Positions 15,042-15,240 of a stretch of DNA of 64,000 bases are shown here, one piece after another (position 1 is the stretch's first letter; each line of letters starts with the position of its first letter). The position numbers and the translations under genes were made by a program. Source of the stretch: Escherichia coli (GTDB lineage Bacteria > Pseudomonadota > Gammaproteobacteria > Enterobacterales > Enterobacteriaceae). The notes beneath the pieces are model-generated. The model made no database searches. It saw nothing but the letters and a program-made list of their open reading frames with translations, and was not told where the DNA came from. Location: the NCBI RefSeq assembly GCF_045037415.1, contig NZ_CP173438.1; one strand, given 5' to 3'.

Positions 15042-15240
15042 TGTCAAGGGTGAAGGAAAGTGATTTTTTGGGGCATGCATGGGGCAAAAATATTTGTTGT
15101 GGGGCATTTTGGGGCATGATTGGAACACTTTGTTACATATGAACTTTGCCGATTTTTATATGACATGGAAATACAACGCTTTGATTCTTCTAAATAAAAA
15201 ACATGCTCTTGGGCGTTCTTTAGTGATTTTTAAAAATTCC

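Follow-up and report, generated by a model that had tools for sequence, protein, structure and literature searches.

Paired TGGGGCA repeats in the attR arm of a yecE-integrated Escherichia coli prophage as probable arm-type sites of its PF12167 integrase

The cluster of TGGGGCA repeats next to the yecE junction of an Escherichia coli prophage most probably consists of arm-type binding sites for the prophage's own integrase; we put the probability of this reading, in which binding is deduced from sequence comparison, at about 0.85. The repeats lie outside the recombination core and occur on both arms of the attachment site, the integrase carries an N-terminal arm-binding domain, and the motif is conserved with the integrase lineage and changed where the arm domain has diverged. 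The repeats were found in a 64,000-nt stretch of E. coli DNA (assembly GCF_045037415.1, contig NZ_CP173438.1), called the window below, and positions are numbered from its first nucleotide.

On the plus strand TGGGGCA is present at 15069-15075, 15080-15086, 15100-15106 and 15110-15116, with start-to-start spacings of 11, 20 and 10 bp and with T, A, T and T as the eighth base. The preliminary description had reported four TGGGGCA(T/A) repeats in about 50 bp, located between the SOS boxes of a dinI-like gene and the junction in yecE. All four copies were confirmed, and so was their location, with LexA boxes at 14998-15013 and 15026-15041 and the junction at about 15245-15255. Along the plus strand the order is gattttt-TGGGGCAT-gca-TGGGGCAA-aaatatttgttg-TGGGGCAT-tt-TGGGGCAT-gat-TGGAACAC, in which the last element is a degenerate fifth copy, 11 bp past copy 4, at a position where relatives have a good TGGGACA site. 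On both strands of the window together TGGGGCA occurs nine times against 10.3 expected, which is about the chance number, so the unusual feature is the clustering and not the abundance. No other 7-mer in the window has four or more non-overlapping copies in 60 bp, and clusters of this kind were absent from all 200 dinucleotide-preserving shuffles. The clustering is far beyond chance. The pattern GGGRCR-N5-GGRRCR was found twice in the window, both times inside the cluster, once at attL, and nowhere else in the approximately 113 kb examined. An isolated minus-strand TGGGGCA at 14664 was taken as a chance occurrence. Elsewhere in the window AACCAAT is present three times within 50 bp (46519-46562), probably by chance since shuffled sequences also gave clusters of three (mean 0.36 per shuffle).

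The repeats are 138-179 bp inside the right end (attR) of a lambdoid prophage of about 51 kb inserted in yecE. The surrounding 701 bp is 100% identical in many complete E. coli chromosomes, and for gene content we used the RefSeq annotation of THO-003, whose locus is identical to that of the window. This annotation gives the right prophage end as tail genes, a tail fibre gene, and genes for a macro-domain protein, a tail-fibre assembly protein and a reverse transcriptase with a SLATT protein, followed by a frameshifted dinI-like gene; past the latter come a 105-bp 5' remnant of yecE, yecD and aspS. About 51 kb upstream and beyond the window is the left prophage end, where a 437-aa tyrosine integrase (WP_000362005.1) and an excisionase (WP_000528718.1) adjoin the reconstituted yecE. 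The crossover was mapped by three-way alignment of attR, attL and the uninterrupted yecE of K-12 and is at or just after CAC (15245-15247). The sequence CAGTTAA (15249-15255) is identical in attP and attB and has short inverted repeats on its flanks. The core reads ATCAC-N-CAGTTAA-N-(A/G)TG(A/G)C, and the arm motif is outside and unlike it. In lambda nomenclature the repeats occupy the P arm, the long arm, of the phage attachment site (Table 1).

Table 1. Features of the attR arm, with positions in the window and offsets from the crossover
Feature	Position	Strand	Offset (bp)	Basis or conservation
Putative arm-type site 1 (TGGGGCAT), first half of distal P-arm pair	15069..15076	+	-179	aligns with TGGGGCAT in CharmingMan, phi80 fossil, phiP27 and Stx2 phage I
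Putative arm-type site 2 (TGGGGCAA), second half of distal pair, 11 bp past site 1	15080..15087	+	-168	
Putative arm-type site 3 (TGGGGCAT), lineage-specific extra copy	15100..15107	+	-148	
Putative arm-type site 4 (TGGGGCAT), first half of proximal P-arm pair	15110..15117	+	-138	in every relative examined, including Gifsy-2 and Rac
Putative degenerate arm-type site 5 (TGGAACAC), second half of proximal pair	15121..15128	+	-127	TGGGACA or TGGGGCA in relatives
Three tandem units of about 10 bp (TGAACTTTGC / CGATTTTTAT / ATGACATGGA)	15136..15169	+		partly conserved in alignments
Match (AATCAAAGCGTTG) to IHF consensus WATCARNNNNTTR	15174..15186	-	-74	consensus scan
Core-proximal block ATGCTCTTGGGCGTTCTTTAGTGATTTTTAAAA	15203..15235	+	-45 to -13	alignments
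yecE 5' remnant, 105 bp, left by insertion	15236..15340	-		THO-003 annotation, K-12 comparison
attR core (phage-side ATCAC, CAGTTAA, bacterial-side GTGGC)	15243..15261	+		three-way alignment

Two details of the junctions deserve mention. Immediately left of CAGTTAA, attR and K-12 attB have G and attL has A (15245-15256 compared with 14954-14966 of the NZ_AP022525.1 2200000-2249500 locus), which is the opposite of what is expected for a crossover inside CAGTTAA. The overlap region may extend left to CAC, or else the original attB or attP may have differed from the reference sequences. At attL in the same locus (14232-15002, 14984-16297) the phage provides a new 5' end for yecE. Restoration of the gene is uncertain because the annotated DUF72 coding sequence would use ATT as its start codon and shares 19 bp with the 3' end of int.

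The P-arm sites differ in how widely they are shared. The partner at site 2 is kept in CharmingMan, the phi80 fossil, phiP27 (TGGGACAA) and Stx2 phage I. Site 3 falls within a 10-column stretch of the alignment that is missing from phi80, mEp237 and PPompW, and it is degenerate in CharmingMan (TTAGGACG) and phiP27 (TCGGGACG). Through its second half the proximal pair is half-degenerate in this prophage. The tandem units between this pair and the core might form a candidate binding region for the DUF1233 excisionase; Gifsy-2 has two copies of AAGTTCGTTAA at the same place. The IHF match is a weak candidate for a DNA-bending site and is absent from that position in most relatives. On the P' side the consensus scan gave a match at +27 here, shared with CharmingMan, and at +22 in Tritos; no match conserved throughout the family was found in the relatives scanned, and IHF sites are a conjecture. 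The core-proximal block is almost invariant among phages with different cores (yecE, ompW, Gifsy-2, Klebsiella phages) and is a possible bending-protein or Int-contact site. It has no match to the IHF consensus, and it is not an obvious intrinsic terminator since a terminator scan of 14700-15400 predicted none.

As ways to examine the repeats, the preliminary description had named a search for them at the other prophage end and in related prophages, and in both places they were found. On the phage side of attL the same strand reads TATGGGGCATCATTGGGACATAAT, i.e. TGGGGCAT-N3-TGGGACAT, a pair in the same orientation as the attR repeats with its members at +72 and +83 from the crossover. The 49.5-kb attL locus contains only six copies of TGGGGCA. 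This P' pair is inside the 3' end of int, since the core directly follows the int ORF and partly overlaps it. In phages of E. coli, Salmonella and Klebsiella the P' pair overlaps conserved Int codons (V/A-P-x-M-P-H/Q), and part of its conservation in enterobacterial phages could be at the protein level. In the Rac-like 683R6 the pair is located in non-coding DNA after the int stop codon, which indicates that conservation of the pair in other phages reflects more than Int coding. In phiCTX both repeat sets are non-coding; these two are the only cases that separate DNA from protein constraint at the P' pair.

The breadth of the family was determined by tblastn of Int against GenBank phages. Identity to the Int of this prophage was 100% for PhiR49_2, 85% for CharmingMan, 79% for Klebsiella KPP5665-2, 76% for the ompW/yecE Stx phages, 72% for phi330, 68% for 933W, VT2-Sakai and Stx2 phage I, 64% for Fels-1 and Gifsy-2, 60% for Tritos, 43% for Rac-like 683R6, 36% for Aeromonas pAEv1818 and 30% for phiCTX. 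The integrases obtained from IMG/VR in a scan with the Int alignment were all 89% or more identical, most of their contigs stopped at the int stop codon, and no P-arm information was gained from them. The sites are kept in at least 11 relatives, which are phylogenetically non-independent: phiP27, CharmingMan, PPompW, KPP5665-2, phi330, the 933W-type Stx2 phage I, Tritos, Gifsy-2, Rac, Rac-like 683R6 and Aeromonas pAEv1818.

After a search of phage genomes with the reconstituted attP, eight contiguous attPs (Int identity 36-85%) were aligned, with offsets counted from the aligned crossover. The P' pair is present in all eight at +72/+83, within 6 bp, where the phi330 offset fits only with a 19-bp duplication in its record removed. 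A P-arm pair is present at about -137/-126, within 4 bp, in all of them except PPompW. For this phage copies were counted at -159 and -139; the sequence paired with the latter (TGGGACGC) has diverged too far to be counted. Pair orientation is identical in all eight. In the most distant attPs the flanks are otherwise unalignable; the surroundings in pAEv1818 cannot be meaningfully aligned and the pairs are still there. The near-fixed offsets are kept over the whole range of integrase identity in this set. Extra distal P-arm pairs occur in this prophage, CharmingMan, phiP27, PPompW and Stx2 phage I, the last having three tandem pairs at -201 to -128 from the attachment site. Gifsy-2 has TGGGGCA pairs 64/75 bp from one end of its record and 142/131 bp from the other, attL of Rac-like 683R6 carries TGGGGCAAATTGGGGGCAA, and attR of K-12 Rac carries five GGGGCAAAA-like units at a spacing of about 10-11 bp. 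The pairs of Gifsy-2, Rac and phiP27 have the same orientation and similar distances to the core. phiP27 uses the same yecE site with a different left neighbour, and both pairs are present there, with the middle copy degenerate. The genes beside the repeats vary (dinI here, an invertase in KPP5665-2, umuD in pAEv1818, ynaM/ynaE in Rac), which indicates that the sites track int and attP and not dinI.

The integrase has an N-terminal Arm-DNA-bind_2 domain (PF12167, residues 7-70, E = 9.8e-24) followed by a catalytic Phage_integrase domain, and the excisionase adjoining int is a DUF1233 protein. PF12167 (DUF3596) is the hallmark of the IntBPP-1 subgroup of tyrosine recombinases (Smyshlyaev et al. 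2021, PMC8138268); that study gives the integrases of the Stx2a phage, Gifsy-2 and BPP-1 as putative members and describes no DNA arm sites. The integrase examined here agrees with this subgroup in its DUF3596/PF12167 domain and is 64-68% identical to the Gifsy-2 and 933W-type integrases. Compared with relatives, its arm domain is 94, 86, 84, 86, 77, 81 and 77% identical, against 85, 76, 79, 72, 68, 60 and 64% for the whole protein. In every comparison the identity of the arm domain exceeds that of the complete protein, which fits a constant arm motif combined with changing core specificity. In the searchable literature, which excludes most subscription journals so that an earlier description is possible, we found neither a published description of arm sites for the PF12167 family nor published biochemistry of Int arm binding to such sites.

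Records of two phages already contain repeats of this kind. In Stx2 phage I (AP004402) an entry 'repeat_region, arrangement gg; region III' corresponds to the same motif pairs, annotated only as repeats. Phage phiCTX (GenBank AB008550, 'region1; containing R1,R2 repeats') likewise has a PF12167 integrase, its arm domain being 35% identical to the one here, and 11-bp-spaced 7-mers on both sides of the attP core that also start with TGGG. Its repeats are arranged as three tandem copies on the int side, the third degenerate, and a pair on the other side, in one orientation relative to int. It differs in its motif, GTTCCCA (= TGGGAAC), in a P-arm pair nearer to the core and in the non-coding position of both sets. 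If the arm domain reads the motif, the two should diverge together, as they do in phiCTX.

The excisionase is another protein that could read the repeats, polymerizing on the P-arm tandem repeats and bending attR for excision. Direct repeats at helical spacing in an attR arm are also typical of Xis sites, the DUF1233 excisionase adjoins int and co-occurs with the motif in all relatives but one, and the homologous XisR of Rac, a member of the same family, shifts a 294-bp attR fragment in EMSA, with the site unmapped (PMC4632033). Xis sites would, however, be expected on one arm only, between the Int arm sites and the core, whereas the motif was found on both arms and in the same orientation on the P' arm at attL, where a lambda-type Xis has no sites. 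The phiCTX pairs flank the core on both sides in the same geometry. In pAEv1818 the motif is kept at the same offsets although the annotated excisionase has no DUF1233 match, a single case that depends on a negative HMM result. Better candidates for Xis sites are the tandem units at 15136-15169, between the repeats and the core. The both-arm motif, the PF12167 arm domain and its conservation, pAEv1818 and the phiCTX co-variation all favour Int over Xis, and we regard excisionase sites as improbable.

Even less probable is a regulatory function of the repeats upstream of the divergent dinI-like SOS promoter, as an activator or UP-like site or the operator of a phage regulator. Such a role would fit the start of copy 1 at 22 bp upstream of the predicted -35 (TTGACA, 15047-15042, minus strand), the two LexA boxes overlapping the promoter, and the recurrence of dinI next to the repeats in CharmingMan, phi330, phi80 and Gifsy-2. 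It does not fit the matching pair at the far prophage end, inside int, nor the presence of the repeats at the same core distance without dinI in KPP5665-2, pAEv1818, Rac, phiP27 and Stx2 phage I, and for the latter reason it was rejected as a primary role. A LexA/SOS operator was rejected as well, since the CTGT-N8-ACAG boxes are separate from the repeats and several relatives have the repeats without dinI. With the predicted -35 this close to the first arm-type site, Int occupancy and the dinI promoter could interfere, and Int could secondarily affect that promoter. We give the smallest chance to repeats that have no protein-binding function and reflect chance or a recent local duplication, a G-quadruplex tract or a small ORF (15079-15255). 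Copy 3 resembles a local 10-bp duplication, loops of 7, 16 and 6 nt separate the four G4 runs, and an ORF annotated over the region in phiP27 (L58, hypothetical protein) is open here too (58 aa, plus strand). Yet the shuffles gave no such cluster and conservation spans genera. Many relatives have only two G-runs per arm, for which a G-quadruplex was rejected as the conserved feature, and the ORF is closed by stop codons in the aligned CharmingMan and phi80 sequences and runs into the recombination core, for which the small protein was rejected. Repeat 2 contains the start of this 58-aa ORF and the core supplies its final TAA; the ORF is probably an annotation artefact. None of the excisionase, dinI, ORF and G-quadruplex or chance readings explains why the repeats are present on both arms, at offsets that stay fixed from genus to genus. 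The preliminary description had offered integrase or excisionase arm-type sites or, failing that, another repeated regulatory site. Its arm-type reading is supported, with the integrase favoured over the excisionase by the both-arm motif, the Int arm domain and pAEv1818, and its fallback found no support as the repeats travel with int and attP and not with dinI.

In lambda attP the arm-type sites of Int are P1, P2 and P'1-P'3, and each protomer bridges an arm and a core site. As in lambda, both arms carry a short repeated motif that is distinct from the core and would be read by the N-terminal arm domain of a heterobivalent tyrosine integrase. The arms also differ in length as in lambda, P being long, with sites about 130-180 bp from the core that compare with P1/P2, and P' short (within about 90 bp), the comparison being with general knowledge of lambda; between arm sites and core there is room for Xis and IHF. 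Unlike in lambda, the motif here is TGGGGCAW, whereas the arm consensus of lambda and HK022 is C/AAGTCACTAT, which has no match in 15060-15130. The arm domain is of the PF12167 type, and only Int residues 160-244 weakly match lambda Int structures by sequence. The strict 11-bp pairs and the position of the P' pair inside the int 3' end are further differences. Elements of the lambda arm-site type, to which these probably belong, are classical; particular to the present case are the motif, the strict pairing, the fixed offsets and the family.

If the integrase reads the repeats, the PF12167 domain of the 437-aa heterobivalent Int would recognize the 8-mer TGGGGCA(T/A), and the core-binding and catalytic domains would act about 130-180 bp away at the yecE crossover (...ATCAC-N-CAGTTAA...). 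An 11-bp pair, corresponding to one helical turn, would place two Int protomers on the same face of the DNA. The conserved P-arm pair (-137/-126) and the P' pair (+72/+83) would together provide four arm sites for the four protomers of the recombining tetramer, with each protomer bridging one arm site and one core site, a stoichiometry suggested by analogy with lambda Int. The distal pair (-179/-168) and the copy at -148 may be alternative sites, used differently in integration and excision like lambda P1/P2. In the prophage state the sites in the window belong to attR. Xis (DUF1233) and a bending protein on the AT-rich 125 bp between the proximal pair and the core could fold this arm back onto the core, and the folded attR arm together with the attL P' pair would form the excisive intasome. 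The bends might come from the tandem units at 15136-15169, the IHF match at 15174-15186 and the block at 15203-15235.

The genes around the repeats gave several further observations. The dinI-like gene (14763-14982, minus strand) is frameshifted and a RefSeq pseudogene; a strong SOS promoter with two CTGT-N8-ACAG boxes is kept. The 458-aa reverse transcriptase encoded in the 12619-14671 region (minus strand) has a near full-length match to PADLOC RT_UG17 (E = 8e-159), and the 234-aa SLATT protein overlapping upstream of it matches RTasSLATT (E = 2e-57). Together they are a candidate defence-associated reverse transcriptase (DRT-type) system, a moron located between the genes for tail-fibre assembly and the dinI-like protein. 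A 300-aa macro-domain protein (11011-11913, plus strand) is encoded between the tail-fibre and tail-fibre assembly genes and had no PADLOC match. In phi80 (JX871397, 2450-2766) and mEp237 (2444-2780) a fossil attR of the same kind is located about 1.1 kb left of the real attP. The fossils contain dinI, TGGGGCA pairs, conserved P-arm blocks and an N-terminal yecE fragment, and their arm sites are nearly intact though the resident Int is lambda-like. They are taken as evidence of an ancestral aberrant excision from yecE.

How efficiently a prophage integrates and excises, and in which direction the reaction runs, is decided by arm-type sites. Our results leave the general picture of how such integrases act unchanged. 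A conserved motif with fixed offsets gives a testable intasome map and a sequence rule for att cores and prophage boundaries, and the motif is a marker that exposes relics such as the dead attR (dinI, repeats and yecE fragment) of phi80 and mEp237. Prior knowledge that we found for the family consists of a protein classification (PMC8138268) and one gel shift of Rac attR with Xis (PMC4632033). The family mobilizes Shiga-toxin genes (933W/Sakai-type, yehV, yecE and ompW phages) and likewise the prophages Gifsy-2 of Salmonella and Rac of K-12. With odds slightly better than even, we propose that the whole PF12167 (IntBPP-1) family shares a fixed four-site arm code, consisting of GGGGCA pairs with 11 bp within the pair at about -137/-126 and +72/+83, in 933W/Sakai-type Stx phages, Gifsy-2, Fels-1, Rac and Aeromonas phages. 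The P' pair would often be in the last int codons as double-purpose sequence, and a switch between integrative and excisive complexes might lie in the distal pairs, which in this prophage adjoin the SOS-controlled dinI-like promoter. If this is true, sequence alone would suffice to predict the attachment cores of these medically important phages and the exact ends of their prophages.
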